A DNA stretch of 64,000 bases from Nitrospirota bacterium (GTDB lineage Bacteria; Nitrospirota; UBA9217), in assembly GCA_963790205.1 (NCBI GenBank), contig CAWBNQ010000003.1, positions 608,785 through 672,784 of the forward strand, in the 5' to 3' direction. Made by a program: the position numbers and the translations under genes. This document shows positions 10,477-58,164 of the stretch, one piece after another. Within the stretch, counting starts at the first letter, position 1. Each line of letters opens with the position of its first letter. The notes under the pieces are model-generated. The model had not been told where the DNA came from. It saw only the letters and a program-made list of their open reading frames with translations, and searched no databases.

Positions 10477-11547
10477 CTACTGGTCACTTTTTTTATGATG
10501 TTTCATTGCAGTCTTGACGAACTGTCCGAATTTTCTGTCCTTTCTACGCTTTTCAACGTAGGACAGCTCGTTGTATTCAGATTCCTTCATCAGCTTCAAA
10601 AAGCTCTGATATCGATCCGCTTGTAATGTGCCATTGTCAATTGCGTTTAGGAGTGCGCAACCGACTTCCTTGGTATGAGTGCAATTGGCAAAACGACAGG
10701 TTTTTGAAAGGCTCCAAATATCAACGAAGCTTTCTTCAAGACCCGAACTGGCGCCGATATTCCCCAGTTCCCTCATTCCAGGGGTGTCGATCAGCATTGC
10801 CCCTTGATCGAGGACGATCAGTTGGCGCTGCGCCGTCGTGTGTTTGCCCTTCCCGTCGCTTGCACGGACTGTGTTTGTCTCAAATAAATCGCGGCCTATA
10901 ATATGGTTCAAGAGCGTTGTTTTGCCTACTCCGGAAGATCCAACGAGACAATACGTTTTGCCCGGCTCCAGTAATTGACGCACGTGATCCAATCCGAAGC
11001 CGGTCACGTTGCTGAGCGGAAGGACTTTGCATTGGATGTTAGCTTGACGTACTTCCGATATTCTTTGCTCCAGCTTCTCGGGGCTGACCAGATCGCTTTT
11101 TGTCAAGAGGAGGGTCGGTTCAACGTGCCCTTCGTTTACCATCACAAGGTAGCGCTCCAGCCTGCGCAGATTGAAATCGAAATCACAGGCTTGCACGATC
11201 AAGGCGGAATCTATGTTGACCGCGATCATCTGGTAGTCTATTTTTTTACCAGGGGCTTTTCTCCGTAAAAAAGATTTGCGGGGGAGAAGACCATGGATGA
11301 TGGCAAAGGTATCATCGTTGTGAAACTGGACAAGTGCCCAATCACCTACCGAAGGAAGATCTATGCTCGACTCAACTGAGTAAATAAAATTTCCTGCTAA
11401 TTCGGCAAACACTTCGCTCTTATTATTTCTTATAAGGTAGCTGTCCTTATGGACCGCAGTCACGCGAGCCACGGTGCAGTCTGGTCTCAGCGCCTCCGAT
11501 CTTTTGTCTTCAAACCACTGATCAAATCCGAGCGTTATAAGTTCCAT
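10477..11547 (-). CDS. rsgA: Ribosome small-subunit-dependent GTPase A.
   Basis: Circularly permuted GTPase motifs: DTPGMRE, P-loop GSSGVGKTTLLN and a C-terminal Zn-finger CRFANCTH. Confidence 0.9.
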   Translation of the reverse strand: MELITLGFDQWFEDKRSEALRPDCTVARVTAVHKDSYLIRNNKSEVFAELAGNFIYSVESSIDLPSVGDWALVQFHNDDTFAIIHGLLPRKSFLRRKAPGKKIDYQMIAVNIDSALIVQACDFDFNLRRLERYLVMVNEGHVEPTLLLTKSDLVSPEKLEQRISEVRQANIQCKVLPLSNVTGFGLDHVRQLLEPGKTYCLVGSSGVGKTTLLNHIIGRDLFETNTVRASDGKGKHTTAQRQLIVLDQGAMLIDTPGMRELGNIGASSGLEESFVDIWSLSKTCRFANCTHTKEVGCALLNAIDNGTLQADRYQSFLKLMKESEYNELSYVEKRRKDRKFGQFVKTAMKHHKKSDQ

Positions 11548-11604: not shown

Positions 11605-12236
11605 TATTTGCTCTTGGGCGCGAATATCTCGTTTACTTGAGCACGTAACTTCTCACCATGCTGTCCAGGGTTCCTAGTGTATGTATAAGATGTAATCAAT
11701 TGCTTGTTGTGCAGTACGTATATGACTGGTATAGAATTGTCGTAATAGCGAACGCCGAACTTTGTAAATAATTCGTCAGCTCGCTCTCGTGTCTGTTTTC
11801 CGCATTCAACAATCAGAATACTCATTTTTTTTGGATCAGGAGAACCAGAAGGTGTTAGGGCGTCCCTTTCTTCAAGTCTTCGTACATCCTTGAGATAGCC
11901 CTCAAGAACGCCGGCAGGCGTTAGATTATTGCGTTTCTTGGCAGGGAACCAAGTTGGACCACTATGCCGGCCGGAATTCTTAAGGTTATTTTCATCATAA
12001 GAATCTACAAGGCACAATATGACGATTTCTGCGGAATCAAGTTGGTTTAGTACGCTTTCCCACGATACTATGGAAACCGGCCAATAAGTGTTCCCCTCAT
12101 TCGAATCATGACTCGGTTTTGCACAAGCAGAAAGAAAAACGAATGCGATTACAGCAATGATTTTGACAAATTTCATTAATATCCTCCCCGTGCTCTTAAT
12201 GGGGAATTGCGACGACGGAGGTGATTTTATATGCAT
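11604..12236 (-). CDS. Cassette-encoded lipoprotein, hypothetical.
   Basis: Lipobox LSAC after a signal peptide (probable start MKFVK about 12176). Low GC. Confidence 0.45.
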   Translation of the reverse strand: MHIKSPPSSQFPIKSTGRILMKFVKIIAVIAFVFLSACAKPSHDSNEGNTYWPVSIVSWESVLNQLDSAEIVILCLVDSYDENNLKNSGRHSGPTWFPAKKRNNLTPAGVLEGYLKDVRRLEERDALTPSGSPDPKKMSILIVECGKQTRERADELFTKFGVRYYDNSIPVIYVLHNKQLITSYTYTRNPGQHGEKLRAQVNEIFAPKSK

Positions 12237-12817
12237 TTTGCCTTTTTCTTTACAGCAACAATATAGTCTTCATAGCTGTCGAACCCAGTAGGCAAATTAA
12301 TTTTCATATTCGGATTTTGTTTCCGAAATGTCTGGTAATCTGTCAAACTTTGATCATAATGCTTACATGCCTCGTTTTCATCTCCAATATACGATAAATA
12401 TGTGTTGCCCATAACGAGATCAATATTGGTTAATGCATCATACTTGGCATTTTTAACAAGGATCTCTTTTGCCATCTGAAAATATTCAATCGACTTTTTG
12501 TATCGTACGTCAAAGTTTATCGACTTGTCGAGGAAACCATTTTTTCGATAATGCGGTTCCCATCGGTCTACAGTCGGAGACTCCAAGAAGAAAGCATATT
12601 GCCGATACGTCTCAGCAAGCCCAAGTTCGTCATTCTTACTCTGATATATGTCTCTCGCCTCTAGAATCAAACGTTCCGCCGGTAAAGGACGATTTTGTTT
12701 TTCATATAAATTGTGAGCCCAACCAAGTTTTTCTCTAGGGTCACTTGTTACAGGTACCCCCATCGCTGCACATCCCGTAAGTGTTGCGACTATCAAAGCT
12801 ATGGCAAAGCGATGCAT
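12227..12817 (-). CDS. Cassette-encoded lipoprotein, hypothetical.
   Basis: Signal peptide plus lipobox LTGC. No known domain. Confidence 0.45.
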   Translation of the reverse strand: MHRFAIALIVATLTGCAAMGVPVTSDPREKLGWAHNLYEKQNRPLPAERLILEARDIYQSKNDELGLAETYRQYAFFLESPTVDRWEPHYRKNGFLDKSINFDVRYKKSIEYFQMAKEILVKNAKYDALTNIDLVMGNTYLSYIGDENEACKHYDQSLTDYQTFRKQNPNMKINLPTGFDSYEDYIVAVKKKAKCI

Positions 12818-12837
12818 AAATCGTCTTTCCTCCTTCT

Positions 12838-12894
12838 GGATAACACGCGGCTGACGCGCCGCACGGCGCGTCGCAGTCGAGCCGCAGGTTGGTA
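12838..12894 (-). other. attC site.
   Basis: GGATAAC ... GACGCGCCG/CGGCGCGTC stem ... GTTGGTA, 8 nt before the antitoxin stop. Shares the core GCGCGTCGC(T/A)GTCGAG with other attCs. Confidence 0.7.
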
Positions 12895-12901
12895 TCCCGA
12901 A

Positions 12902-13213
12902 TCAGCTGTGAGATGCTGCTGCATGCAGTTTCAAGCCGAGCGCATCCATGACCTTGAGGATGGTATCGAAACCGGGACTGCGTTCGCCGGAGAGCGCTTT
13001 ATAGAGACTTTCGCGTGATAAACCGGAGTCACGCGCGACCTGCGCCATCCCTTTTGCACGGGCAATATCGCCCAGTGCCTTGGCAATGAATGCAGCATCG
13101 CCGTTGGCCTCCTCAAAACATGCCTCAAGATATGCGGCCATTTCCTCCGGGGTGCGAAGATGTTCGGCAACATCGTACCGTGTTGTTTTGGTTTTGGCTT
13201 TTGTCTGGCTCAT
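12902..13213 (-). CDS. Addiction-module antidote protein (HigA-like HTH antitoxin).
   Basis: Resembles the 'probable addiction module antidote protein' family (TIGR02684-like). It lies downstream of, and 9 nt from, the toxin gene. Confidence 0.7.
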   Translation of the reverse strand: MSQTKAKTKTTRYDVAEHLRTPEEMAAYLEACFEEANGDAAFIAKALGDIARAKGMAQVARDSGLSRESLYKALSGERSPGFDTILKVMDALGLKLHAAASHS

Positions 13214-13222
13214 AATGCCCTC

Positions 13223-13513
13223 CTACAGATTGTGTGCGAGGCGTAACGCTGTCTTGATATCAGCGGCCTGAGTGCGTTTATCTCCACCGGCCAGCAAAAT
13301 TATCAATGTACGGCCTCGCATCGTGTAATACACCCGGTATCCGGGACCATAGTCGATTCGCAGTTCCGAGACACCCTCACCGACTGGCTTAACGTCACCA
13401 GGATTCCCCGTGGCTAAGCGTTCGACGCGAGCCTGCACGCGGGCGCGTGCATGAATGTCGCGCAGGCCATCAAGCCACTTAGCATATGTATCAGTTTTTC
13501 GGATTTCGAGCAT
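13223..13513 (-). CDS. Addiction-module killer protein (RelE/ParE-superfamily, HigB-like toxin).
   Basis: 96 aa. Resembles the 'putative addiction module killer protein' family (TIGR02683-like). Toxin-first (HigBA) order. Confidence 0.7.
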   Translation of the reverse strand: MLEIRKTDTYAKWLDGLRDIHARARVQARVERLATGNPGDVKPVGEGVSELRIDYGPGYRVYYTMRGRTLIILLAGGDKRTQAADIKTALRLAHNL

Positions 13514-13520
13514 GAATGTA

Positions 13521-13538
13521 TTGTAGCCTTATGGCTAC
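13521..13538. promoter_or_regulatory. Perfect palindrome TGTAGCCttaTGGCTACA just upstream of the toxin start: candidate TA operator.
   Basis: A 7-bp inverted repeat with a 3-nt spacer, immediately 5' of the toxin start codon. Confidence 0.4.
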
Positions 13539-13840
13539 ACATTGTCAATATTTTTCAATTAGGTTAATGTGCAACGTTATCAAAAGACAGGCAGGATAAT
13601 GAAGGCAGTGAATGACGTAAAGGACACAACGAATATCCAGAACCAGATTCCTATTTTCCCATCTTTACGTCGCGTGATCGCGATATAGTCAAAGATATTC
13701 TATAAAACTAGCAAAGTAATTGCTCTTCCCTGTCTCATTTCGAGCAATAGTCGAAATTCGCATGGCTGAGATTCCGGCAGCAATGGCGGAGAGCCATTTT
13801 ATGATTTGAATGAGAATCATGATGTTTTAGACTAATGCGG

Positions 13841-13936
13841 GGCTGAGCCATGACCCCTTGGGGTCATTGGTCTCCAGCTCCTGGTTCTCCCGGCGCGTTT
13901 TTCGCGCTGGGAAGGAGCGCATGGCTCAGCCCCGCA
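13841..13936. repeat. Long structured palindrome: 19-bp perfect inverted repeat AATGCGGGGCTGAGCCATG around a nested imperfect palindrome.
   Basis: Read directly. No ORF. It lies between the TA cassette and the next attC. Confidence 0.5.
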
Positions 13937-13957
13937 TTCTCGCGGCGCGAAGCGCCG

Positions 13958-14016
13958 GGAGAACGCGGCGCTGACGCGCCGACCTTGGCGCGTCGCTGTC
14001 GAGCGCCAGGTTAATC
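13958..14016 (-). other. attC site.
   Basis: GGAGAAC ... GACGCGCCG ... GGCGCGTCGCTGTCGAGCGCCAG ... GTTAATC. The TAA stop of the upstream cassette ORF lies inside the core. Confidence 0.7.
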
Positions 14017-14490
14017 ATTGTTCTTTTGTTCTGTGTTTAGTTCATCAAGTTCTTTTCGGCTGAGCGTAAACGACATAAATAAAAACAGAAAGCTGATAAT
14101 GAAATAAGCGGTATATTCTGCAAGCACGGAAAAGGAGTGCATCCATTTCCAAAATCCCATACCAATGGGGATTGAAATAGGTCCGAGCCATTTCGGGATA
14201 GGAATACTTTTCAGCTTTGATCTGAATTTCCAAATTACGAGCCATATTGGACAGACAGCTAACAAGTCGAAGAAAATGATTTTATTAAGGGTTATCAAGT
14301 CTAGCTCTTTTTCTGTCTTTGCCATGAATAAAAGGGCAATGAAAACGAGAGCAGATGCATATTGTGAACGTGACTTAAAAGGTCTTTTACTGAATTTGCG
14401 AAGGGCCAATACGAGTGTAACGGCAAATGCTATACACGCAATGGAAACGAGAAGAATATAAAGGTAGAATTTGTCCGTACTCATTTCCAT
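14011..14490 (-). CDS. Cassette-encoded small membrane protein, hypothetical.
   Basis: Four or five hydrophobic helices. AT-rich. Confidence 0.35.
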   Translation of the reverse strand: MEMSTDKFYLYILLVSIACIAFAVTLVLALRKFSKRPFKSRSQYASALVFIALLFMAKTEKELDLITLNKIIFFDLLAVCPIWLVIWKFRSKLKSIPIPKWLGPISIPIGMGFWKWMHSFSVLAEYTAYFIISFLFLFMSFTLSRKELDELNTEQKNND

Positions 14491-14521
14491 TTGTCACCAA
14501 ACCATGATCAAATTATTTCCC

Positions 14522-14581
14522 GATTAACACGCGCCTGACGCGCCGCCTTCGGGCGCGTCGCTGTCGAGGCGCTTGTTAGGC
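14522..14581 (-). other. attC site (best-formed).
   Basis: GATTAAC-ACGCGCC ... GGCGCTT-GTTAGGC are near-perfect reverse complements, with central GACGCGCCGCCTTCGGGCGCGTC. It lies 33 nt before the SIR2 gene stop. Confidence 0.8.
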
Positions 14582-14614
14582 TACCTTTCCTCTTGTCATG
14601 TTCGAACTAGATGT

Positions 14615-15748
14615 CTAGTGGGCTTTTTTGATAGCTACGTATTCTTCGAGCGTTTTGTAGTATTTCAGATCATGGCCACGGAATATGCTAGCATAACGTT
14701 TCTTCAGTTGGGAGCCCCGCTTGCAAGCAGCTGGATTCACCACGTCGATTTCAATCTTTGTAAATTTTGGCTGTGGTCGCATTTCTTCAACAAGATAATT
14801 AATTTGCCGAAAGAGCCATTCAGCGTAGCAGTCAGTGGAGGGAAAAGAATAACCTATAAAGACAAGTCTCCTGCTTTGCTGAAGTTTTCGCCTAGCGATT
14901 TTCCACTGGCGGTTGTAAAGACTGTTCTGATGAATTTCAATTTTTTCTGACACAGGAGGGATGATGTTTATCTCCATTACGGAATTGCAAGACTTACACT
15001 TAGGATAATCAGCAAGTGTTATTTCCGCGATGTTTCCTTTTTTACTTCTTATAAATGTGTTTGTCTTCTTTGATTTGCATTTATCGTTTCTGCATGTTGC
15101 CCAGTTTAATGACCCATGAAGCTTCAAATAAACAGGGGCAGAATAGTAGGTTGTTATCCGGTTGTGACCTGTTATTAGTGCGACATAATTCTTAAAATGT
15201 GCTTTGTCATGTTTTTCAAGTGTAACATCTGCTATTGTGTCCCAATTGAACGAAACCACAGTGTCGAGATCAGACAAATCTCCGAACAGCCTTTCTAAAT
15301 ATCCACAGTATTGTCCGTAAGACCGCATGGTAAGCATCAATGTGATGAATCGCACAAGACTTCTTTTCGCTTCAAGGAAGACTTTTTGGTACGCACTGCC
15401 TTTAGGGTACATCTTTGTCCCAATGTCGAAATGAGTAAAAACACTTTCAATGTTCAAACCTTTCCAAGTGCTACCATCATAAAAAGAGCGCGTGTCGTCT
15501 AGTTTGTATGTTTGGTGCAAAAGAAGATTGAGCCCTTCATGTGTAGCTCCAAGCAAATTTAAGAAATTGGTACCCGTTGCGCCGTATTCTTTGTCGGAAA
15601 CCAATATGTCATAAAAGAAATTATCACCAGAAGGCATTCGCCGATCTCGAAGCCAGTCGTCCGATTCCGGCAGCCGTTTAGCTCCAATTGATGCACCGGC
15701 ACCGAGTATATACATCGTTCCGCGATCGTCATTATCTATAGCCATCAA
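14615..15748 (-). CDS. SIR2-like (SIR2_2/DHS-like NAD-binding) domain protein with a C-terminal Cys4 zinc ribbon.
   Basis: N-terminal MYILGAGASIGA, characteristic of the SIR2_2 family. C-terminal CRNDKC...CKSC. Cassette location. Confidence 0.6.
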   Translation of the reverse strand: MMAIDNDDRGTMYILGAGASIGAKRLPESDDWLRDRRMPSGDNFFYDILVSDKEYGATGTNFLNLLGATHEGLNLLLHQTYKLDDTRSFYDGSTWKGLNIESVFTHFDIGTKMYPKGSAYQKVFLEAKRSLVRFITLMLTMRSYGQYCGYLERLFGDLSDLDTVVSFNWDTIADVTLEKHDKAHFKNYVALITGHNRITTYYSAPVYLKLHGSLNWATCRNDKCKSKKTNTFIRSKKGNIAEITLADYPKCKSCNSVMEINIIPPVSEKIEIHQNSLYNRQWKIARRKLQQSRRLVFIGYSFPSTDCYAEWLFRQINYLVEEMRPQPKFTKIEIDVVNPAACKRGSQLKKRYASIFRGHDLKYYKTLEEYVAIKKAH

Positions 15749-15788
15749 TTCTCACGTATTTCCTTTCGCGACCCTCTCGACGCGACTG

Positions 15789-16529
15789 TTAGTCGGCAGA
15801 GTCGATCTTTATAGCTTCTTCAACTCGTCGGCACAACAAACTGGAAAGAACGAGGTATTGGGCTGCAACGTTCTGAGTTGGATTAATAGTAAGAGTATGT
15901 GCTTTCGGATTTCTTACTCCCTGATATACGCCTTGAAGAATCTGGATAAACCCCTTCTGATCGTTACAACCGGACTCTGTTTCCAAAGATGAAAGGACAA
16001 GAACTGGTCTTTGCAAGGAAAATGTTGCGGCAACAAGTTCGGGACCATCCTTGTCAATTCCTGTGCGTTCTCGAATAAAATCAAAAACTGTAACAATGGA
16101 ATTTAAAACAGCATCCCTAAAACGACCAGCTCTGAAGTGGGCATATGAAGCCGCAGTTACTCTCGGATGTAGAAGGTCTAGGATTGAATAGCTAAGGTCA
16201 GAGTAGGGTTGTGATGAAAAATAGTCATCTATTGCATCCTCTAGTTGTGTTATTAGCTCTAGGATGCTCCAATGCGAACCCCTTTCGTCAGCAGCGATAT
16301 GATGTAAAATATCCTTAATTTTAGAACTATCAAGTCCTTTTGGCCAAATACGCTCAAGATCTCCAAGTGACCGCACCAATAGGCTTGTAAGTGAGCCGGT
16401 CGCATAGCCTTCGCCCTCATTGAACTTCGCATCCATAATTTCTCGTGTGGTTGCTTGGATGGCCCGAAGTGATCTGTTTATTGCTATGTATTTTTCTATC
16501 ATATATTTCCCTTGGCGACAGGCTGTCAC
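15789..16529 (-). CDS. Hypothetical protein, possibly Hypoth_Ymh/Abi-like (C-terminal RNPKAH motif).
   Basis: 246 aa. The C-terminal GVRNPKAHTL resembles the conserved motif of the TIGR02391 family. Weak. Confidence 0.3.
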   Translation of the reverse strand: MTACRQGKYMIEKYIAINRSLRAIQATTREIMDAKFNEGEGYATGSLTSLLVRSLGDLERIWPKGLDSSKIKDILHHIAADERGSHWSILELITQLEDAIDDYFSSQPYSDLSYSILDLLHPRVTAASYAHFRAGRFRDAVLNSIVTVFDFIRERTGIDKDGPELVAATFSLQRPVLVLSSLETESGCNDQKGFIQILQGVYQGVRNPKAHTLTINPTQNVAAQYLVLSSLLCRRVEEAIKIDSAD

Positions 16530-16576
16530 ATAAAATGTACTTAATGTATATATGCCTCTACATATGATGTGATTTA

Positions 16577-17416
16577 TTAGCGCGCATCTTGGCTTGGTTC
16601 CGGGTTATCGATTTGTTCAACTGTGACGGTTGCAGCTATAGCGTTCCATGCATCAAGCATCCAATGTGGTAATTGGTCATGTCGTTTTACCGATACTCGC
16701 GCATTTGCGTATGGCATGTGAGGTAAGAGGACGGTTCTAACAATGAGAGTGTCTGGATTGACTTGAATTGGGGCGATGAGATCAGGTGACTGGGTGATGT
16801 TTTCTCGACTCTGCATATAGAGTGGCACAAGGTAGTTCATTCGCCCGTAATACCAGTACGGAAGTTGCAAGCCTCGATTAATTGACCACTGAATAGCCCC
16901 AGATACAGCGCACATCTGCGAAACCGGGGGCGTTTGTCCTAAAAAAGGTACGCGATCTGAATTGTCTCTGAGTATGTGGTCATGAAGCATGACGATCTCA
17001 GCTCCGCATGGCAACGCTGGCGCTGCTGGTAAATCAGGCGGCGTTGGTAGTGCACCGGCAGAGATATCGGAGCCGACGTGAACGCAGTAAAGAGGCCCAC
17101 GCCCTGCATTGGTGTTCCTCTCAAATACCATGTAAATTGGCGTCCCGTATCGCGTCTGTAAGTGTCCGGCGGTGACGAATAATTGGTTACTACTGGTGGT
17201 GTATCGATCTTGCTCGATGCTCCAAGCGATATGGACAGCAAGATATTTCTCAAGAACGTAGTTGTCGTTTCCCCAATTTTCAGAGAGGGCTGTACTGCTA
17301 AGCGATGAAAAGATGCGTTGCGGGATTTGGGCAAGGCGTCGCAATCGAACTACCACTTCGTTTGTGAATGGATCTCCTAATGCGGCCGATAGTTCTTCTT
17401 TCGTGAATGACATCAA
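16577..17416 (-). CDS. Hypothetical cassette protein.
   Basis: 279-aa ORF with a TTG/ATG start. No recognised domain. Confidence 0.35.
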   Translation of the reverse strand: MMSFTKEELSAALGDPFTNEVVVRLRRLAQIPQRIFSSLSSTALSENWGNDNYVLEKYLAVHIAWSIEQDRYTTSSNQLFVTAGHLQTRYGTPIYMVFERNTNAGRGPLYCVHVGSDISAGALPTPPDLPAAPALPCGAEIVMLHDHILRDNSDRVPFLGQTPPVSQMCAVSGAIQWSINRGLQLPYWYYGRMNYLVPLYMQSRENITQSPDLIAPIQVNPDTLIVRTVLLPHMPYANARVSVKRHDQLPHWMLDAWNAIAATVTVEQIDNPEPSQDAR

Positions 17417-17466
17417 GCCTCCTTGGAACTAACATGTTATTGACTATAAGGACCAGGTTTATGATA

Positions 17467-17829
17467 TCAATAACCTTCTGACTCCCCGTTTATGATAAGC
17501 CGTTCCAATTCAGTTCCCTTGATTTTGCCGTATTGAATATGCCAGGCGCGTGTTTTTGGATCCCATTTCCCTTGCGCCGCTTTGGCCTTCTCCCGCAAAA
17601 CTGTATCATTATATGCAATGCGCACAGGCACTCGAGTGTTGTCCTCGAATCGGCGTACAGCAGGCGCCCAGGTTTTCTTCTCAATGATCAGTTCTGCGGT
17701 CTTCAGCCGGGTGCGGCTCACCTTGTCGTAACGGTAGCGTACGCAGAGGAGCGCCGCGCCGTATTTGGCAACCAGGCTTTTTGTCCCTTTTTGCCCCGGT
17801 TTCAGCTTGATGGTCGTAATGATTGGCAT
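17467..17829 (-). CDS. Hypothetical protein, first cassette next to attI.
   Basis: 120-aa basic protein. No recognised domain. Confidence 0.35.
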   Translation of the reverse strand: MPIITTIKLKPGQKGTKSLVAKYGAALLCVRYRYDKVSRTRLKTAELIIEKKTWAPAVRRFEDNTRVPVRIAYNDTVLREKAKAAQGKWDPKTRAWHIQYGKIKGTELERLIINGESEGY

Positions 17830-17839
17830 CGCATCCCCC

Positions 17840-17930
17840 TCAAGGGTATAACATGGAAAAGCCTACTATAAATATCCACTAATTGCAAGAATTTCAATGG
17901 GGTATCGCGGGGTATTGAGGCCGGGGTATT
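17840..17930. promoter_or_regulatory. Putative attI region: GGGTATAAC core-like site plus three GGGGTAT(T/C)G direct repeats abutting the intI start. Pc is expected here.
   Basis: Direct repeats at about 17899, 17909 and 17923. It lies between the first cassette ORF start and intI. Confidence 0.35.
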
Positions 17931-19378
17931 GCTAATTCGATATATTCCCGGTATGCCATCCTGTATGGAACCCATCCCCCCGGATACCCTTGCTCGCTTT
18001 AACAACTTCATGAAACGGCATAATGTCGCCCCTCTTTGCCGGTCCGATTACCGGAAGTGGCTCCGCTATTTTCTCGACTTTCGCGCCAAATATTCTCTGC
18101 CCGACCCTCATACCGATCAAGTGAAGCTGTTTGCGGAAAAGTTGCGGTCGAAGAATCAAACCACGGCGCAGGTAAAACAGGCGACTGATGCGATCTCGCT
18201 TTATTTCTCTCTCCAGCCTGAAATTGAAATTGTCTCTACGACGGGGCTCATGCGGCGTCAGGACCGGACGGAGGAACAACGTCTGTCGGAACGGCGCTCT
18301 TCCCCGGAGCAGTCTCCTGAGTTGGTCCGTGAGCCTCCCGGACTTTTGCAGGCCCAGCCTCCCGTCAGATCAGGCAGGCGGTATGACGAATGGCGTTGCC
18401 TCAGAAAAACCGCGTCACCTGCGTGGGACGGGGTGATCGGAAAGCTGGCCGAGGAAATAAAGGTCCGGCACTATTCCCGCAAAACACTCAAACACTATGC
18501 TGATTGGATCAGAAAATTTCAGAATTACCTGAAAGACAAAACACCCGGGGATCTGTCCTCGCAGGATGTCAAAGAGTATCTCACTCATCTGGCCGTCTAA
18601 GGAAGACGTCTCTTCAAGCCACCAGAATCTCGCATTCAATTCTCTGCTGTTTCTGTACAGGCACATCCTGAAGAAGGACTTTGGAGATCATAAAGATGTC
18701 CCGCGCGCGAAGACCTCGAACTATATCCCTGCGGTTCTTTCCCGCAAGGAGATCGATTCGGTTCTGGTTCATCTCAGACATCCCTTCAGGCTTGTGGCCC
18801 AGCTCCAGTATGGCTGCGGGCTGCGCATTTCCGAGGGCTGCCAGCTGCGCGTCAAGGATTTTGACTTCGATACGGGTCTCCTTAGGGTGCGGGGAAAGGG
18901 CGACAAAGTACGGACCGTGCCGCTGCCGAAAACGCTCCTCACGGAACTTCATGCCCAGTTGGAGCACGTGAAAAAACTGCATGAGGAGGATCTCACAGCG
19001 GGTTTCTCCGGGGTCTTTCTCGACGATCAACTTGAAAAGAAGTATCCGCGGGCCGCGAAGGAGTTTGTCTGGCAATGGTTTTTCCCGCAGGAGTCGCTGA
19101 CTTTCATCGCTCAAACGAAAGAATCGCGGTGCTATCATGTGCATGATTCGCGGATGCAGGAAGCTTTCGGCGAAGCGGTGCGCAAGGCGAAACTCACAAA
19201 GCGCGTCACCTCCCACACCTTCCGCCATTCCTATGCAACCGCAATGCTGCAGGCCGGTTACGATCTCCGCACGATTCAGACGCTCCTTGGCCACGCGGAC
19301 GTCAGGACCACGATGATCTATCTGCACTGCCTCCCGCCAAAACCCGGGAAAGAGGTAAAAAGCCCGTTGGATTTCTGA
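17929..19378 (+). pseudogene. intI: Integron integrase IntI, split into two ORFs by a +1 frameshift at about 18590. It carries an about 150-aa N-terminal extension.
   Basis: The IntI-specific patch is present: LEKKYPRAAKEFVWQWFFPQ ... HDSRMQEAFGEAVRKA. Catalytic RxxR, HxxR and Y are present: HTFRHSYATAMLQAGYDLRTIQTLLGHADVRTTMIYLHCL. ORFs 17929..18600 and 18566..19378 are in different frames. Confidence 0.85.
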
Positions 19379-19444
19379 GGCCAGGATCGACTGTTAAGTT
19401 TTTCTTTGCCTTCTTGCCCTTCTCGCGGTAAAATCCTTCTGCAT

Positions 19445-20188
19445 ATGGACATCATCATCGCTCACAATTTGAAAAAGGACTACAACGGCCTTCGGGCCGT
19501 GGACAACATCGATTTTGCGATCAGGCAGGGCGAGTGCTTCGGTTTCCTCGGCCCCAACGGCGCGGGAAAGACCACGGTCATGCGCATCATCTCCTGCTTC
19601 ATGCCGCCCACGGCAGGGACGGTGACGGTCTTCGGGATGGATGTCGTGGACCGGCCGAGCGCGATCAAGTCCCGCATCGGCGTCATGCCGCAGGACATCA
19701 ATCTCGACCCCGATCTTTCCGTGACCGAGAACCTCAGGGTCTATGCCCGGTACTTCGACATCCGGAAAAAGGACGCGCTCAGGCTCAGCCGGGCGCTCCT
19801 CGAGTTCGTCGAACTCACCGACAAGGGGGCCGCCGAGATCGACCAGCTTTCGGGCGGGATGAAGCACCGCCTCCTGCTCGCGCGCGCGCTCGTGAACAAC
19901 CCGGAGATCCTGGTCCTCGACGAGCCCACGACCGGGCTGGACCCGCACAGCAGGCGGGCGGTCTGGGAAAAGCTCAACCACTTGAAATCAAAAAATACCA
20001 CGCTTCTCCTCACGACGCACTACATGGAAGAGGCGGAGAAGCTGTGCGACCGGGTGGCGATCATGGATTCGGGCAGGATCGTGACCGTTGATTCTCCCCG
20101 GCATCTTACGGAGGAACACGGCGGGAACCTTGAGGACGTCTACCTTCAAGCTCACGGGGAGGAGCCTTGCAGATTAAGCGCGCGATGA
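19445..20188 (+). CDS. ABC transporter ATP-binding protein.
   Basis: Walker A GPNGAGKTT, signature LSGGMKHRL and Walker B ILVLDEPT. Confidence 0.9.
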   Translation: MDIIIAHNLKKDYNGLRAVDNIDFAIRQGECFGFLGPNGAGKTTVMRIISCFMPPTAGTVTVFGMDVVDRPSAIKSRIGVMPQDINLDPDLSVTENLRVYARYFDIRKKDALRLSRALLEFVELTDKGAAEIDQLSGGMKHRLLLARALVNNPEILVLDEPTTGLDPHSRRAVWEKLNHLKSKNTTLLLTTHYMEEAEKLCDRVAIMDSGRIVTVDSPRHLTEEHGGNLEDVYLQAHGEEPCRLSAR

Positions 20189-52559: not shown

Positions 52560-53107
<548 letters not shown>

Positions 53108-53136
53108 TACGTAAGAGTACCTCTAATCATAGGTCA

Positions 53137-53195
53137 GCCTAACACGGTGTTGAGGGGCGGTGATTTTCCCGCCCCTCTCGGACACCAAGTTATAT
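53137..53195 (-). other. attC site.
   Basis: GCCTAAC-ACGGTGTTGAGGGGCGG ... CCGCCCCTCTCGGACACC-AA-GTTATAT. The TAA stop of the upstream ORF is embedded. Imperfect stem with extrahelical bases. Confidence 0.75.
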
Positions 53196-53768
53196 CACAC
53201 TCACGAGTAAACGTAATATCCAATAAAGTGTGAATGACGCACCAATGAAAATTAATGTCCAAATTAAAGCGATAAGCCATTTTGATAATTGTACCGTTGG
53301 AATGACGGTGATAATTTTAGCCAAACCATCATCAGACTTTGCATAAGCATTGATTTTATCCCAAGTTGTAGGAGGAAAATATAAATATGAAATGGTAATT
53401 TGTTCTTTCGGAACTAAAACAGGTATAAGTAATTCTCCAGAACCATCATCGTTACGCTCAACGGAATATTTGATCTTTGGGAAAACGGTGATATTAGGTG
53501 GTAAATAATTATGTCCAACTCTGACGTTGTGGGCTGATTTATTCCCGGCATTGCGAAGGATAATGCTATGAGTAAAGACGACGGTCTTTTGAGCATCTTG
53601 AAGAGTAAAAGAAGATATATGGCCTATATAGGAAACGAGTTTTGATCGTGTTTCTGTGTAGTATTTAATAATTGTTCCGAGGAGGAGCGTAATGATTGGA
53701 GAGAGTAATTTAAGAATTTGTTCGGTTGTCATAGAACCTCCCTTATCGTGTCCGCAATGTGGGTCCAT
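53190..53768 (-). CDS. Hypothetical membrane protein (cassette).
   Basis: N- and C-terminal TM helices. AT-rich. Confidence 0.35.
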   Translation of the reverse strand: MDPHCGHDKGGSMTTEQILKLLSPIITLLLGTIIKYYTETRSKLVSYIGHISSFTLQDAQKTVVFTHSIILRNAGNKSAHNVRVGHNYLPPNITVFPKIKYSVERNDDGSGELLIPVLVPKEQITISYLYFPPTTWDKINAYAKSDDGLAKIITVIPTVQLSKWLIALIWTLIFIGASFTLYWILRLLVSVI

Positions 53769-53860
53769 TGTTATGCAAAAAGAAGTAATTTCAAATGACC
53801 CTAATGTAAAAACAACAGATTGCGAATGCCAAAAATGCGGCTGGTCACAATATCACTCAC

Positions 53861-53913
53861 ATATAACGCGCCGGTCACGCGCCGCTTTTTAGCGCGTCGC
53901 TGTGGACCGGCAG
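53861..53913 (-). other. 5' portion of an attC site interrupted by the group II intron.
   Basis: ATATAAC-GCGCCGG ... GCGCGTCGCTGTGGACCGGCAGG matches the attC family consensus up to the core. The intron sequence begins in place of the TT(RRRY) core. Confidence 0.6.
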
Positions 53914-55866
53914 GTGTACGCTCGGCACGGGCGTGAGCTAATGGGGTGCAAGTCCTCTGTACGAGAACCAGAGTAGCACAAGTACCAGCCCAAGGCAAGG
54001 GCGGAAGGGCGACCGACCGTCTGAAGGAAGCCTAACGGCAAACGTGCGAGCCGACGGACAGAAACCGCATACAAGGCTTAGCCCTCGGGTGAGTCAGCAC
54101 CACATGACGAAGCCCACTGGTTCAGGGGATAGGGTAAATGCGGCGGTTGCGCACGGACAGTTCACGTTCTTATCCGGGGAGATCTGCGCGACATGCGATA
54201 GGATCGTCATGAGAGAATCCGGGACGGGTCAACCCGGCAAGCAAGGCCCCGGCGTATCAGCGGCTGTCGCCTGATACGAGTCCCGCTTTCGGGAGATACG
54301 AATCAGACAGCATCTCATGCCGAACCCCTGTAGCGCCTTCTTTGGAAACAGAGACGGTGAGCGCGCAGAAGTCAGCAGACGGCATAGTAGTCCCGGACTA
54401 CTCGGGACGAAGGCCAGAACGCGGAAAGGAGGAAGGGCAATCCATAAGCTCTGGGACGGTGATGAGTCCGACACGGATGAGCCGATCCGGGCGCGTTATG
54501 GAGAGACAGCCCACTCGAATGACCACAGTGGAAGACGTTGTAGGCAGTGAGAACATGCAGCAGGCATGGCAGCGGGTCAAGGCGAACAAGGGAGCAGCCG
54601 GCATCGACGACATGTCGATTACGGACTATCCCGAATTCGCCAGGACCAACTGGCCAAGAATCAAAGCCTCCTTGCTGGACGGGACGTATGATCCCACTCC
54701 GGTCAAGAGGGTCGAGATTCCGAAGGACAACGGGGGTACGAGGCTTCTCGGCATCCCCACGGTCTCCGATCGCGTTATTCAGCAAGCGATCACCCAGGTG
54801 CTTGTCCCGATCTTCGATCCCCACTTCTCCGAATCGAGCTATGGGTACAGGCCGGGCCGCTCGGCGCATCAGGCTGTAAAGAAGGTGGTTGAGTTGATCA
54901 ACCAAGGATACCGCTACGCCGTTGACATCGATCTTGCGAAGTTCTTCGATAACGTCAATTGGGACGTGTTGATGAGCCGGGTCGGTAGACGCGTCACGGA
55001 CAAGGGCATCCTCAAACTGATCGGCAAATACCTTCGGGCCGGAGTCGTCGTAAACGGCAGGCTTACCCAGACCACCAAAGGAGTGCCGCAGGGCGGGCCG
55101 CTTTCGCCGTTCCTGTCGAACATTCTTCTGGATGATCTCGACAAAGAGTTGGAGAAACGGGGGCATCAGTTCTGCCGGTACGCCGACGACCTTATCATTC
55201 TGGTAAAGTCAAAGCGTGCCGGAGAGCGGGTGATGAAGAGCGTCACCACCTTCCTTGAAAAGAACCTCAAGGTGCAGGTGAACAGGGACAAGAGCAAGGT
55301 GGGAAGCGCGGAGTCCAGCATCTTCCTCAGCTTCACGTTCCATCTCAAGAGGCCCACTGTCTCCCGGAAGGCGTTCACGAACTTCAAGAATGAACTCAAG
55401 GACCTTACGGGCCGCAGCTGGGGTGTATCCATGAAGCACCGATACGATAAAATCCGGACCTACTTACAGGGCTGGATGAACTATTTCGGAATCGGTATGC
55501 GGTACAACGATGCGGTCGAACTGGATCAGCGGCTCCGAAGACGCATTCGGATGTGCTATTGGAAACAGTGGCGCACGACGAGAAAGCGCGTCGGGGAGCT
55601 GATGAAACGCGGGGTGAGTGAACATCGCGCAGTATCGGTCGGCATGAGCAGGAAGAGCTACTGGCATCTTGCTAAGAACGAAGCCATCAATGTCGGCCTG
55701 TCCAATGCCTATCTCAAGGAACAGGGGCTTACCTCGATCAGAACACTGTGGATCAAGATTCACCATCCGGCTACGGCCCGATAGTTTTCTGCGAATCGCC
55801 TAGTGCGGACCCGCATGCTAGGTGGTGTGGGGGCTGGGGGCTAAACACCCCCGGCTACCCGATTAA
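53914..55866 (+). mobile_element. Group II intron (attC-associated, class C-like), antisense to the cassette genes.
   Basis: A structured 5' region of about 430 nt with no ORF. The RT/maturase ORF lies in the domain IV position. DV/DVI-like hairpins at about 55805-55860, ending about 8 nt before the next cassette ORF stop. Confidence 0.7.
54342..55784 (+). CDS. Group II intron reverse transcriptase/maturase (RT domains 0-7 plus X; no En domain).
   Basis: The YADD motif (FCRYADDLIILV), RT blocks (PQGGPLSPFLSNILLDDLD) and a maturase/X region. The probable real start is an internal Met near 54500. Confidence 0.9.
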   Translation: METETVSAQKSADGIVVPDYSGRRPERGKEEGQSISSGTVMSPTRMSRSGRVMERQPTRMTTVEDVVGSENMQQAWQRVKANKGAAGIDDMSITDYPEFARTNWPRIKASLLDGTYDPTPVKRVEIPKDNGGTRLLGIPTVSDRVIQQAITQVLVPIFDPHFSESSYGYRPGRSAHQAVKKVVELINQGYRYAVDIDLAKFFDNVNWDVLMSRVGRRVTDKGILKLIGKYLRAGVVVNGRLTQTTKGVPQGGPLSPFLSNILLDDLDKELEKRGHQFCRYADDLIILVKSKRAGERVMKSVTTFLEKNLKVQVNRDKSKVGSAESSIFLSFTFHLKRPTVSRKAFTNFKNELKDLTGRSWGVSMKHRYDKIRTYLQGWMNYFGIGMRYNDAVELDQRLRRRIRMCYWKQWRTTRKRVGELMKRGVSEHRAVSVGMSRKSYWHLAKNEAINVGLSNAYLKEQGLTSIRTLWIKIHHPATAR

Positions 55867-55873
55867 AATATGC

Positions 55874-56767
55874 TCATTTAGATTTCCAACTTATGCGGCG
55901 CAATAGGACGCCATCGTCAAGAGCGATAAGGTGATAAATATCTCCCTCTGAATCCACTGCAAATCTTTCATCGAAATTGCCCCGATATCTAATTTGAATT
56001 GGCTTTTCAATTTTCTTGGATTGCACATCACCATTAATTTGGTATTGTATCTTTATGTTTTTGTCCTTATTTTCGATTTGTACAGTTGTCGTTATTGCAT
56101 AATTATTCTTTCGAGAGTTATTAGATTTGATGCGATAAAAAGTCCCTTCTTTGTCATACCAAGAGAAATGATCATGATTTGGATTCTTTACATATTTAAG
56201 GAAATTTCCATCAAAATCATAAACTGCTGACTTTCCCGATCCTCCAATAACACAAGTAACATGGCCCATCTGTTCATCGCTGCTTATCTCAGAAAAATAC
56301 TCTTCTGTCTTCGGGTTAAGCTGCTGAGCGCCAAATTTATTTAATATCTTGCCACCGGAGGATATTTTGTAAATATCGTCATTCAGCATATTATAATAAG
56401 GTGGCTTTGCTATGAGGGCGAAGAAGTTGTCATTCAAAATAGCGAATCGACCAGCAAGTCCTTGTTTGATCCAATCGAAACCGAGAGGGATCTTTCTAAT
56501 GAACTTACCGTTTAAGTCGAAGACTTGAATTCGGTTATTCATAGAATCGAAAATATAAATATGACTTTTGTAAAGTTGAAAGTCTAGCGAATAGCCCAGT
56601 TCCGTTTTGCCAAGAGTTTCTCTACCAAATTCGCCGTCTTTGTCGCCCCAATTACCAACGATTAATATGTTGTCACTGATATTAGGGCCGCAAAATGCGG
56701 GCGAGGTATATAAACTGCAAAAAAGAACGATGATCATGACGTATTTCAGAACTTTCATGAATACCAC
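55874..56767 (-). CDS. Secreted protein with NHL-repeat-like beta-propeller motifs (cassette).
   Basis: Signal peptide. IYIFDSMNNRIQVFDLNGKF-type repeats. Confidence 0.4.
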   Translation of the reverse strand: MVFMKVLKYVMIIVLFCSLYTSPAFCGPNISDNILIVGNWGDKDGEFGRETLGKTELGYSLDFQLYKSHIYIFDSMNNRIQVFDLNGKFIRKIPLGFDWIKQGLAGRFAILNDNFFALIAKPPYYNMLNDDIYKISSGGKILNKFGAQQLNPKTEEYFSEISSDEQMGHVTCVIGGSGKSAVYDFDGNFLKYVKNPNHDHFSWYDKEGTFYRIKSNNSRKNNYAITTTVQIENKDKNIKIQYQINGDVQSKKIEKPIQIRYRGNFDERFAVDSEGDIYHLIALDDGVLLRRISWKSK

Positions 56768-56787
56768 CTTTGATGAGCTTTTATTCG

Positions 56788-56847
56788 GATTAACGCGCGG
56801 GTGAGACGCGCGTATTTTGCGCGTCGTTCTCGACCCGCAGGTTGGGT
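56788..56847 (-). other. attC site.
   Basis: GATTAAC-GCGCGGG ... GACGCGCGT...GCGCGTCG ... CCCGCAG-GTTGGGT. It abuts the TGA stop of ORF 56847..57677. Confidence 0.75.
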
Positions 56848-57677
56848 CATTTGTCGAGTTTCGTTCCGCTCAACCCGTCCTGCGAACTCTTTTTAAAGAT
56901 ATTCATCATTTGCTCGATCATGCCCTTATTATTTTTTGCTTCAACAGTCATAAACTTATATGCCTCGTTTTCTGGATGAATGCTTGTGGAAATTAGCAGT
57001 TCGCTATTACTCTGTGTCAGTTCAGGTGAAAGTTTGAAAAATACTCTGTTCGGATGGCGTCGTTTATCTAACGAAAGAGTTATGCTAATGTTTGGAAATT
57101 GAAGCACCCAGCCATTGACACTTTGGCCGTCTCTTGCGGTATCCATCGGCTTTATTTTCTTTCTATAAGGCAGAAAGAAGGCACTATGCAGCGGGTCTGT
57201 CAGAAAAAAGACAAAAACATCTATATAATCAACAGCGCCACCATTATACAAGTCATTTCTTATTTTTTGCTCATAAAAACTACCGACGGAGAGTGATCGC
57301 ACCTCAAGTTGCTTTGATACACTGACACGCCACAAGACAGATGCAAAGAACTTTCTTAGTTTTGTTTTGTCGATATCGTTGAACACACATAGTTTCGTAT
57401 CTTTAGCGTCCGGGTGTGATACTCGGTCAAAGAGGCCTTGCTTGTCTCTCAATACTTGAATTGCATAAGCATCGAGTGGTTCAAAAATACCATGTTCGCA
57501 ATCCGGACACACAATTTTGTCATCGTAGATTGCTTTCTGTAATCGACGCCCTCTTTCACCCGATGAGTCATAGGTTTCAACCTTTCCCTTAGTTTCAATG
57601 TTACTAAAAAAACCAATGGAGAAGATATGAGCCTTAGCCATTTTATCTTTCTCATTTGTGCACAAGAGACACTTCAT
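56847..57677 (-). CDS. Hypothetical protein with N-terminal CxxC...CxxC/His zinc-finger (possible HNH-like).
   Basis: MKCLLC ... AKAHIFS ... VCPDCEHG. No confident family. Confidence 0.3.
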   Translation of the reverse strand: MKCLLCTNEKDKMAKAHIFSIGFFSNIETKGKVETYDSSGERGRRLQKAIYDDKIVCPDCEHGIFEPLDAYAIQVLRDKQGLFDRVSHPDAKDTKLCVFNDIDKTKLRKFFASVLWRVSVSKQLEVRSLSVGSFYEQKIRNDLYNGGAVDYIDVFVFFLTDPLHSAFFLPYRKKIKPMDTARDGQSVNGWVLQFPNISITLSLDKRRHPNRVFFKLSPELTQSNSELLISTSIHPENEAYKFMTVEAKNNKGMIEQMMNIFKKSSQDGLSGTKLDK

Positions 57678-57681
57678 TTTT

Positions 57682-58164
57682 TTACTGAGGGTTGTATCCT
57701 TTTAAATAATTAGTAACCGCCACATAATTATCCATCCACATCATAGCAAACTGAACAAGTGTCATGGGATTCGGCTCGTCAATACCAATTTGAGTTAACC
57801 ATGCTTTGGCCCAATGAATTCCATTGCCCGAATTCCTCGACTTTAACAACTCGGACACCTGGTCCATTGTCGCTTTTACTTCAATGACAAAAGGATAGCC
57901 CTCCACTATATCGGGAGAGAAGACTATCTTTTCAAGGAACTCCCTAACGTGCCGAAAGTTTGCATTTTTATCTTCTAAAGCAAGAAGTGCCAATAAGACC
58001 AGTGCCAATTTATGAAGCACAACCTTATCTTCAAAAGACGGAGAGAGTACCCAATTTGTATTCAACTTGAACCGAGAGTTTATATCTTTGTTCATGATAA
58101 AGTCGGAGAGAAGTACATCCGCCAAAATATTAGGTTTTATTTTTTTCTTACCGATGTCAAACAT
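57682..58164 (-). CDS. Hypothetical protein (same cassette as 56847..57677; 4-nt gap).
   Basis: 160-aa ORF. No recognised domain. Confidence 0.3.
   Translation of the reverse strand: MFDIGKKKIKPNILADVLLSDFIMNKDINSRFKLNTNWVLSPSFEDKVVLHKLALVLLALLALEDKNANFRHVREFLEKIVFSPDIVEGYPFVIEVKATMDQVSELLKSRNSGNGIHWAKAWLTQIGIDEPNPMTLVQFAMMWMDNYVAVTNYLKGYNPQ

Follow-up and report, generated by a model that had tools for sequence, protein, structure and literature searches.

Does a run of four tightly spaced genes beside an integron integrase make up one anti-phage system, or were four separate gene cassettes joined there? The window (the whole stretch of 64,000 nucleotides analysed here) had been read from its sequence alone as carrying a candidate defence module, in which a SIR2-like protein with a C-terminal zinc ribbon stands next to a Hypoth_Ymh/Abi-like protein and two unknown proteins. 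The features that bear on the question are given by their positions in the window:

17929..19378, plus strand: intI, the integron integrase, in two frames (17929-18600 and 18566-19378)
17846..17852, minus strand: GTTATAC core, read from the sequence, 16 nt upstream of the p120 start codon
17467..17829, minus strand: p120, 120 aa, the first cassette gene, member of a large family of small proteins
17443..17470, minus strand: sigma-70-like promoter match TTGATA-16-TATAGT, in the p120/DUF3825 gap
17427..17433, minus strand: GTTAGTT core, 13 nt before the DUF3825 ATG
16577..17413, minus strand: DUF3825 protein (PF12873), 278 aa
16503..16576, minus strand: DUF3825/TIGR02391 gap, without the attC seen after homologous DUF3825 genes
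15789..16502, minus strand: TIGR02391/Hypoth_Ymh (HEPN-type) protein, 237 aa (a 246-aa ORF before revision of the start)
15746..15793, minus strand: putative relic attC after the TIGR02391 gene, left arm GACTAAC plus GTCGCGTCGAGAGGGTCGCG
14615..15745, minus strand: stand-alone SIR2-fold protein with an internal Cys4, 376 aa (ATG 15745) or 366 aa (ATG 15715)
14522..14581, minus strand: canonical attC closing the block, 3' of the SIR2 gene (R'' GCCTAAC ... R' GTTAATC)

All four consecutive minus-strand ORFs are present where the sequence-only reading had placed them, and the number of homologues for each (SIR2 441, TIGR02391 210, DUF3825 398, p120 1758) indicates that they are real genes. The likely starts are ATG 15745 or 15715 for SIR2, ATG 16502 for TIGR02391 and ATG 17413 for DUF3825. 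These starts give gaps of 43, 74 and 53 nt. The GC content of the block is 0.42-0.44 against 0.54-0.60 in its flanks.

The proposed location in an integron is borne out, with attI at one end of the block and the attC at 14581-14522 at the other. This attC folds at -21.1 kcal/mol (z = -2.9) and belongs to a local family with at least two further copies, at 14026-13958 and 12894-12838. The GTTATAC core is likely the crossover point (G/TT) between attI and the first cassette, its spacing agreeing with the cassette 5' boundaries at four loci with DUF3825 homologues (L092, L096, L100 and L102). The integrase, encoded divergently from the four genes, matches TIGR02249 (E = 6e-90) and Pfam Phage_integrase (1e-34) and has an N-terminal extension of about 170 aa. 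Model positions 2-55 of TIGR02249 fall in its first ORF and 56-313 in its second, the reading frame being broken by a 1-nt insertion near 18596-18598. It is probably a pseudogene, though an assembly error could produce the same frameshift in place of a true inactivation.

Taken as a whole the four-gene block is a cassette, with one terminal attC (14581-14522) in an array beside intI (17929-19378) and attI. The individual genes are not, because the block has no internal attC that would give each its own. No attC-like hairpin was found between the four genes by a home-made heuristic search, whose negatives are weaker than those of a calibrated attC covariance model since it missed real sites: two true sites escaped its strict setting, which was then relaxed, and the relaxed setting still missed the attC sites of L086, which were found by eye and alignment. 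In folding, none of the three internal gaps stands out from shuffled sequence (z = 0.44, 0.63 and -0.10). An Rfam scan of 12000-19500 gave no match at E <= 1, which leaves that interval without a known RNA element or RNA antitoxin.

This layout is what a genuine multi-gene defence operon captured as a single cassette would look like, with p120, DUF3825 and TIGR02391 as sensors, regulators or co-effectors of SIR2. The genes share a strand, the spaces of 43-74 nt between them contain neither an attC nor a terminator, and toxin- or effector-like folds are seen in three of the products. A separate assembly of run ERR12035932 carries an identical three-gene stretch; this contig probably derives from the same population and is not independent evolutionary evidence. 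We nevertheless consider such an operon unlikely, as no pair of the four genes occurs together in about 47 homologue contexts (about 15 for SIR2, 4 for TIGR02391 and 28 for DUF3825), each of the three larger genes forms a cassette by itself at other loci, with an attC of its own, and the internal junctions bear relics of cassette boundaries. The ends of Logan contig L120 (window 17460..14544) might suggest a three-gene mobile unit, but its break points miss the G/TT crossover sites and it, too, probably comes from the same population.

Linkage is likewise absent from the loci examined. No partner genes of the block were found around the 4 TIGR02391 or the 28 DUF3825 homologues, or in L122/L123, and p120 homologues in the contexts examined do not lie beside DUF3825, TIGR02391 or SIR2 homologues. 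When the four proteins were searched by tblastn against 80 genome loci with SIR2 relatives, the one match was a weak HEPN hit, 2.7 kb away on the opposite strand. The word module thus does not fit these genes. Single-gene cassettes are the alternative seen for three of them. An attC ending in GTTAGGC follows the SIR2 homologue of L083 and one ending in GTTAAAC precedes that of L122. The TIGR02391 homologue in L086 is a single-gene cassette between two attC-type sites. DUF3825 homologues in L092, L096, L100 and L102 are single-gene cassettes as well, each with G/TTAGCC ahead of the start codon and the stop codon within GGCTAAC, followed by the attC.

Comparison with these homologous cassettes suggests what became of the internal boundaries. 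Homologous DUF3825 cassettes have GTTAGCC, GTTAGCG or GTTGGCC 15-25 nt ahead of the start codon, and the GTTAGTT core of the block may be what remains of the 5' boundary of a cassette that once carried DUF3825. At the other end of this gene the R'' box reads CGCTAAT, against GGCTAAC in L092, L096, L100 and L102, and is followed by AT-rich sequence; the gap shows no similarity to the local attC family, and its fold does not stand out from shuffled sequence (z = 0.63). After the TIGR02391 gene, the left arm of the putative relic aligns to the local attC family with 20 of 26 positions identical. No right arm is left, GTGAGAA stands at the R' position and the fold is unremarkable (z = -0.10). Scores at the level of this relic were reached by 30 of 3000 segments drawn at random from the genome and by 3 of 3000 shuffled sequences (p ~0.01), a modest significance, and by the same alignment test the other two internal gaps have no significant attC similarity. 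These relics are consistent with a past fusion of cassettes by attC decay.

When an internal attC is lost in a class 1 integron, two cassettes become a single mobile unit. The block resembles such fused cassettes in having several ORFs with one terminal attC and core-site relics at internal junctions. It differs from them in that up to four cassettes would be involved, in a chromosomal array beside a frameshifted integrase, and in that the fusion is deduced by comparison. No functional attC separates the genes, and they are not a conserved module.

We therefore regard it as fairly probable that decay of attC sites, in an integron whose integrase is broken, fused four once-independent cassettes, and that they are not one defence system. 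The region would be the end nearest the integrase in a sedentary chromosomal integron that has lost integrase activity. Four independent cassettes (p120, DUF3825, TIGR02391/HEPN and the zinc-ribbon SIR2) would have shed their internal attC sites, leaving an indivisible 3.3-kb block with attI on one side and a single intact attC on the other. Transcription probably runs through the whole block, starting at the integron promoter or at the sigma-70-like promoter in the p120/DUF3825 gap; the latter was the top match of the scan, with 10 of 12 positions, in a scan whose total matches are not above chance. The four genes would be mutually independent, each family moving and functioning as a single gene. 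If so, genes packed tightly in a cassette array may owe their clustering to accidental attC decay and need not be systems, a caution for automated discovery through guilt by association.

The SIR2 identity of the 377-aa ORF was correctly recognised, the protein having a SIR2 fold with the catalytic Asn, Asp and His intact. The match to Pfam SIR2_2 (PF13289) reaches 17.9 bits and E = 0.0036, under the cut-off of 24.5 bits. Its assignment to SIR2 is based instead on the structure model and the conserved motifs. A precomputed PF13289 match exists for only 3 of the 120 SIR2 homologues listed. The model (pLDDT 87.3) has a central sheet of at least seven strands and appears closer to antiphage SIR2 proteins than to sirtuins. 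Its best 34 Foldseek matches are all defence SIR2 proteins, and the nearest solved structures to the model are all anti-phage SIR2 NADases. The family profile aligned to PDB 8w9l sets FNWD opposite TNYD and LKLHGSxNW opposite KLHGSINW. Among the 120 listed homologues G5 and G7 are conserved in 118, N157 and D159 in 119 and H200 in 120. The protein would be an autonomous consumer of NAD+, which the GAGAS loop would bind and Asn157, Asp159 and His200 would cleave.

The zinc ribbon had been placed at the C-terminus, as an add-on. Instead it is a Cx4C...Cx2C module at residues 208-243 of the 366-aa form, straight after the catalytic LKLHGS, which is the canonical position of the sirtuin zinc module. 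About 120 residues, with the last three Rossmann strands, lie beyond it. Each cysteine of the tetrad (C208, C213, C240 and C243) is present in 119-120 of the 120 listed members, and the ribbon is predicted to bind zinc. By hhalign, HGS-C..C...C..C-IIP of the family falls opposite ELHG-CxxC...CxxC-RPNIV of Sir2Tm (E = 0.01). A phmmer search of the ribbon segment alone against the PDB gave only chance matches.

That no named defence system matches the SIR2 protein was confirmed with PADLOC v2, in which no system model scores better than E = 1e-5. Among the closest known systems is the Sir2 subunit of Sir2-HerA (Nezha; PDB 8yhx, 8w9l, 8j4u and 8sub), with marginal sequence similarity (E = 1e-3). 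Sir2-HerA proteins have no Cys after HGS, whereas the block family has the conserved Cys4 ribbon. No HerA ATPase gene is found in the block or in the annotated SIR2 homologue contexts, and in the neighbours at 9 further loci the HerA family is absent from the 25 commonest Pfam families (of 80). Since the Sir2 of Sir2-HerA is inactive without HerA (PMC11514289), a relative lacking this partner needs another route of activation. ThsA (Thoeris), DSR1/DSR2, SPARSA SIR2-APAZ and Avs5 have SLOG/Macro, large sensor, APAZ or STAND domains, or pAgo/ThsB partners, whereas the block protein is a single domain of 366 aa with no conserved partner; PADLOC gave no ThsA or ThsB match. By analogy with its nearest structural relatives, the SIR2 protein would most likely be an infection-triggered NADase that aborts phage replication, acting without a HerA partner and with the conserved zinc ribbon as a structural or sensing element.

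Classical sirtuins (Sir2Tm, Sir2Af1, CobB and SIRT1-7) and the protein both have a Rossmann fold that binds NAD, a GAGxS loop and the catalytic Asn/Asp/His, and in both a Cys4 zinc ribbon is inserted immediately behind the catalytic HG. The Cys4 module of sirtuins helps to bind the protein substrate, which points away from a pure NADase. A sirtuin-type protein-modifying enzyme (deacylase or ADP-ribosyltransferase), regulatory or housekeeping and cassette-borne by chance, is accordingly a reading to be weighed. Besides the strict conservation of the Cys4 module in the canonical sirtuin position, it is favoured by sirtuin models that match exactly the Cys4 segment, if weakly and under their cut-offs (Pfam SIR2, PF02146, 13.2 bits against 24; the NCBIfam deacylase model PRK00481, 14.8 against 243), and by the many SIR2 homologues that lie among housekeeping genes. 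It also accords with the published rule that immune SIR2 proteins ('sirims') lack the Zn2+ site and the Cys tetrad, the tetrad being 'systematically absent from sirims' (10.1101/2024.09.18.613514), whereas the block family has the tetrad. We hold a sirtuin-type enzyme to be unlikely.

The neighbourhoods of SIR2 homologues speak to both sides. Defence islands or integrons are seen in some cases (L122, L083), while most neighbourhoods are housekeeping or mixed and few neighbours match PADLOC models. The L122 homologue has a type I R-M gene on one side and an MmeI-type methyltransferase gene on the other. At other loci with homologues of block genes, DpnII and TIR genes adjoin (L088), GmrSD and a type I R-M system adjoin on a conjugative element (L093), or a TIR gene directly precedes (L095).

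A possible, if doubtful, extension is that the SIR2 protein belongs to a lineage, widespread in bacteria and archaea, of stand-alone immune-type enzymes that have no partner and kept the ancestral sirtuin zinc ribbon. It would be a single-gene, directly phage-sensing NADase or ADP-ribosylating effector whose ribbon binds the trigger, with DUF3825 a further unrecognised single-gene effector of RelE-like fold. Were this true, the family would be an evolutionary intermediate between sirtuins and antiphage SIR2 proteins, contradicting the rule of no Cys tetrad. The criterion of a missing zinc site that separates immune SIR2 proteins from sirtuins would need revision if the family is immune. Whichever its role, the block SIR2 is an uncharacterised stand-alone enzyme that, as modelled, resembles anti-phage NADases and keeps the zinc module of classical sirtuins.

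The assignment of the 246-aa ORF to Hypoth_Ymh/TIGR02391 proved sound, with both Pfam (2.8e-29; 101.9 bits against 25) and NCBIfam (1e-20; 74.1 against 39.45) above cut-off. Its Rx4H motif (RNPKAH, R197-H202) is at least 97% conserved in 104 homologues, and the protein is predicted to be a HEPN RNase that acts through this motif. PADLOC matches it to Aga_HEPN (3e-20) and PD-Lambda-3_B (1e-17). The likeness to PD-Lambda-3 component B and the pAgo-associated HEPN lies in the C-terminal domain with Rx4H; only the C-terminal 110-130 residues of the block protein match these models, and the N-terminal 110 residues are specific to a subfamily of 235-240 aa. PADLOC found no match to PD-Lambda-3 component A among the four proteins or the next cassette gene. 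A short pAgo link, raised by two genes matching PADLOC 'Aga_' models, was rejected, as neither Pfam nor NCBIfam detects an Argonaute or APAZ domain in the four genes, in the next cassette genes or in the integrase.

One of the two proteins first taken as unknown is DUF3825 (PF12873; 41.1 bits against a gathering cut-off of 27, 2e-10, profile positions 1-233 of 238). The family is strongly conserved, with 63-88% identity across more than 100 clusters, and the literature searched holds no mention of it. The N-terminal domain of its model resembles RelE/ParE-type toxins (Z <= 5.5; mean pLDDT 57.7); the model is poor in the C-terminal half, on which the fold search is therefore silent.

HEPN and SIR2 domains are common toxin modules. 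Together with the RelE/ParE-like DUF3825 domain and a HigB/HigA-type pair (Gp49/ParE-like plus dnstrm_HI1420) that forms the cassette two positions further along, this could suggest addiction or stabilisation toxins guarding the array from loss, like the toxin-antitoxin cassettes of sedentary integrons. We think this highly unlikely, since no antitoxin-like gene lies beside DUF3825, TIGR02391 or SIR2, here or in homologous loci, and the RelE-like similarity is weak in a model of low confidence. Under the fusion of independent cassettes favoured above, the block instead holds three uncharacterised families mobile as single genes: the HerA-less zinc-ribbon SIR2, the 237-aa TIGR02391/HEPN and the strongly conserved DUF3825. 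Integron cassettes are now mined as compact libraries of single-gene phage-defence functions.

The other protein first listed as unknown, p120, has only a weak DUF5710-like motif at its C-terminus (2e-4, under the Pfam cut-off). Longer relatives have no Pfam domains, and no relatives were found in viral contigs. The family nonetheless numbers 1758 cluster representatives at E <= 1e-3, mostly of 110-130 aa. Its only plasmid match, a partial one, lies among small hypothetical genes on a Trichlorobacter lovleyi plasmid.

All four ORFs that a sequence-only reading had claimed between attI and a canonical attC are present on the minus strand, and judging by their many relatives they are real genes. 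The SIR2-like ORF has 441 homologue clusters (E ≤ 1e-3), the 246-aa ORF (TIGR02391) 210, the 279-aa ORF (DUF3825) 398 and the 120-aa ORF (p120) 1758 cluster representatives. The family of p120 is large and made up of small proteins; p120 itself has a weak DUF5710-like motif. GC content is 0.42-0.44 in the block and 0.54-0.60 around it. Going by products on record, translation probably starts at ATG 15745 or 15715 in SIR2, at 16502 in TIGR02391 and at 17413 in DUF3825, leaving gaps of 43 nt (TIGR02391/SIR2), 74 nt (DUF3825/TIGR02391) and 53 nt (p120/DUF3825). A home-made heuristic found no attC-like hairpin in these three internal gaps, which fold no better than shuffles (z = -0.10, 0.63 and 0.44, respectively). 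No terminator-like site was found on the minus strand inside the block. The region's best promoter-like site lies in the p120/DUF3825 gap, overlaps a weak hairpin, and might allow the three genes after it to be expressed without the integron promoter.

14615-17829, minus strand: the four ORFs
17470-17443, minus strand: sigma-70-like promoter, TTGATA-16-TATAGT, 10/12 positions

The SIR2-like protein falls below the Pfam cut-offs (17.9 vs 24.5 bits for SIR2_2; 13.2 vs 24 for SIR2), and its best PADLOC matches, to Argonaute-associated and generic SIR2 models, reach only E = 1e-5. Its family is uniform, with single-domain proteins of about 355-390 aa sharing the motifs GAGAS-G, FNWD, LKLHGSxNW, a Cys tetrad, IPPxSxK, FIGYSFPxTD, WLFRQ and VNP. 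Asn157, Asp159, His200 and the four Cys are each found in 119-120 of 120 members. The top Foldseek matches of an AlphaFold2 model (pLDDT 87.3) are all antiphage SIR2 proteins, namely Sir2-HerA (2e-7) followed by DSR2, SPARSA, ThsA and Avs5; the first sirtuin ranks 35th. Searched against the PDB, the family profile matched only the Sir2 proteins of Sir2-HerA, with the Asn/Asp and His motifs aligned.

The Cys tetrad directly follows the catalytic HGS (C208-x4-C213 ... C240-x2-C243 of 366 residues). A SIR2-like protein with a C-terminal Cys4 ribbon had been described; the fold and the tetrad are there, but the ribbon is not C-terminal, as about 120 residues follow it, with three more strands in the AlphaFold2 model. 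This segment is exactly where the Pfam SIR2 and NCBIfam deacylase models weakly match, and in hhalign it aligns with the Sir2Tm zinc module HG-CxxC...CxxC-RPNIV (E = 0.01). The Sir2-HerA Sir2 proteins, in contrast, have no Cys after HGS. A recent survey (10.1101/2024.09.18.613514) describes the zinc site and its Cys tetrad as 'systematically absent' from immune SIR2 domains. Set against that rule, the family is of the immune type in its modelled structure yet has kept the sirtuin zinc module. What makes the protein of interest is this pairing, seen in a stand-alone SIR2 family that is widespread and as yet unnamed. Among 80 genomic LKLHGSxNW relatives the tetrad is present in 36 and absent in 42, with no SIR2 ORF found at two loci. 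The wider LKLHGSxNW set (loci L011-L080) covers proteins of 330-490 aa from bacteria and archaea, the latter being Bathyarchaeota, Nitrososphaerales, Aenigmatarchaeota and Woesearchaeota; roughly half of the set carries the tetrad after the catalytic His.

We examined whether the block genes travel together. For SIR2 homologues we looked at 80 genome loci, 10 of them with 37-46% identity, and at five contexts with annotation. In the 80 loci, tblastn with the other three proteins found only one weak HEPN match, 2.7 kb away on the opposite strand. The neighbours of nine close SIR2 homologues are mostly housekeeping genes, with no family in more than three loci; HEC-01, AriA, Old and AbiLi are among the PADLOC models matched by a few neighbours of SIR2 homologues. 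Four contexts of the TIGR02391 family (55-75% identity) each have different neighbours and none of the partner genes, and in 28 DUF3825 loci no p120, TIGR02391 or SIR2 relative lies close by.

The three larger genes all occur elsewhere as single-gene integron cassettes. In four DUF3825 loci (L092, L096, L100, L102), G|TTAGCC lies 15-25 nt upstream of the start codon, the stop codon is within a GGCTAAC box, and the attC ends in GTTGGGC, GTTAGAG or GTTATGC. A TIGR02391 gene in the metagenome contig L086 has an attC ending GTTAGCC on one side and another attC-type hairpin on the other; the genes around it in the array are unrelated and include a Mrr-like nuclease. SIR2 homologues have an attC ending GTTAGGC downstream in L083, another metagenome contig, and one ending GTTAAAC upstream in locus L122. 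The unrelated contigs L083 (7111-7184) and L086 (5912-5983) carry a near-identical attC, CATGTGCTGGA..GACTGGG..TTCGCTGGC.CTCAACCCCAGC..G.TCAGCAC, after the SIR2 homologue in the former and before the TIGR02391 homologue in the latter, which suggests that related integrons exchange these two cassette families.

Relics of such boundaries are found in the window. GTTAGTT lies 13 nt upstream of the DUF3825 ATG, matching a cassette boundary, and 3' of the stop there is a CGCTAAT box, then AT-rich sequence with no hairpin. The TIGR02391 stop is followed by GACTAAC and a stretch that agrees with the left arm of the local attC family at 20 of 26 positions, a score reached by no more than 30 of 3000 random windows from the genome and by 3 of 3000 shuffled sequences. 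The right arm of this relic is absent, with GTGAGAA in place of the expected GTTRRRY. Given these relics and the single-cassette homologues, we read the block as four cassettes probably fused through attC decay. A true multi-gene operon is unlikely, as conserved linkage was found nowhere we examined and the internal junctions carry the relics. The sequence-only reading was largely right in its observations; its interpretation of the genes as a module did not hold, nor did the position it gave the zinc ribbon. The TIGR02391/HEPN and DUF3825 genes are of interest as two further uncharacterised single-gene cassette families.

Fusion by attC decay fits the integrase, which probably no longer works: TIGR02249 matches with positions 2-55 in one frame and 56-313 in a second, overlapping frame, so that the model is split without a gap. 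The break is one inserted base near 18596-18598, where GTC TAA GGA is read and GTC AAG GAA GAC (LAV-KEDV) expected. The integrase is also extended at its N-terminus by about 170 aa, and this added part holds a second SAM-like stretch; Pfam PF13495 matches twice. The attC that ends the block folds at -21.1 kcal/mol (z = -2.9 vs shuffles).

17929-19378, plus strand: integron integrase (TIGR02249), divergent from the block
14581-14522, minus strand: canonical attC ending the block, R'' GCCTAAC, R' GTTAATC

The 237-aa protein clearly belongs to TIGR02391/Hypoth_Ymh and has PADLOC matches to Aga_HEPN (3e-20) and PD-Lambda-3_B (1e-17). Of 104 full-length homologues, at least 97% keep its Rx4H motif (R197-NPKA-H202), the N-terminal 110 residues being more variable. 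Its predicted activity is that of a HEPN RNase. Homologue contexts partially back a defence role, many others being neutral. The L122 SIR2 homologue is flanked by a type I R-M gene and a MmeI-type methyltransferase, a TIGR02391 homologue (L088) adjoins DpnII and TIR genes, and a DUF3825 homologue on a conjugative element (L093) adjoins GmrSD and a type I R-M system. In Ideonella sp. 4Y11 (L095; 3768-5870), a DUF3825 homologue (65% identity) begins 22 nt downstream of a gene for a 403-aa CAP12-PCTIR TIR-domain protein and may form a genuine two-gene pairing with it.

We propose that the block is probably transcribed as one unit whose products, including the predicted HEPN RNase, would work independently. 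The SIR2 protein, with its NAD-binding loop and Asn/Asp/His intact, would be an autonomous NAD+-consuming effector; its nearest relatives point by analogy to an NADase activity triggered by infection. Sir2 alone is inactive in Sir2-HerA (PMC11514289). In a SIR2 protein without HerA, the part that could most obviously provide a surface for sensing or assembly is the zinc ribbon, with its strict conservation. A serious alternative, given the zinc module and the many neighbourhoods of housekeeping genes, is a non-immune, sirtuin-like protein-modifying enzyme. It is also possible that the block genes are addiction toxins, though they come without antitoxin candidates.

Beyond the block the array continues with further cassettes, including a toxin-antitoxin pair and what appears to be a cassette with unusual content, an RsgA/YjeQ-like GTPase.

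14026-13958 and 12894-12838: related attC copies after the next cassettes
12902-13513, minus strand: cassette with a HigB-like (Gp49/ParE_toxin) and HigA-like (dnstrm_HI1420, HTH) TA pair, then attC 12894-12838
10477-11547, minus strand: RsgA/YjeQ-like GTPase ORF, with attC-like hairpins on both sides (11637-11552 and 10477-10340)

Perfect inverted repeats of 19 nt (13834-13852/13920-13938) and 22 nt (13875-13896/13952-13973) adjoin attC 14026-13958 and might mark a second hairpin element or an insertion into the array that resembles a MITE. Further low-GC islands at 53001-54000 (0.43) and 56001-58000 (0.38-0.40), vs about 0.57 window-wide, may be other foreign insertions.
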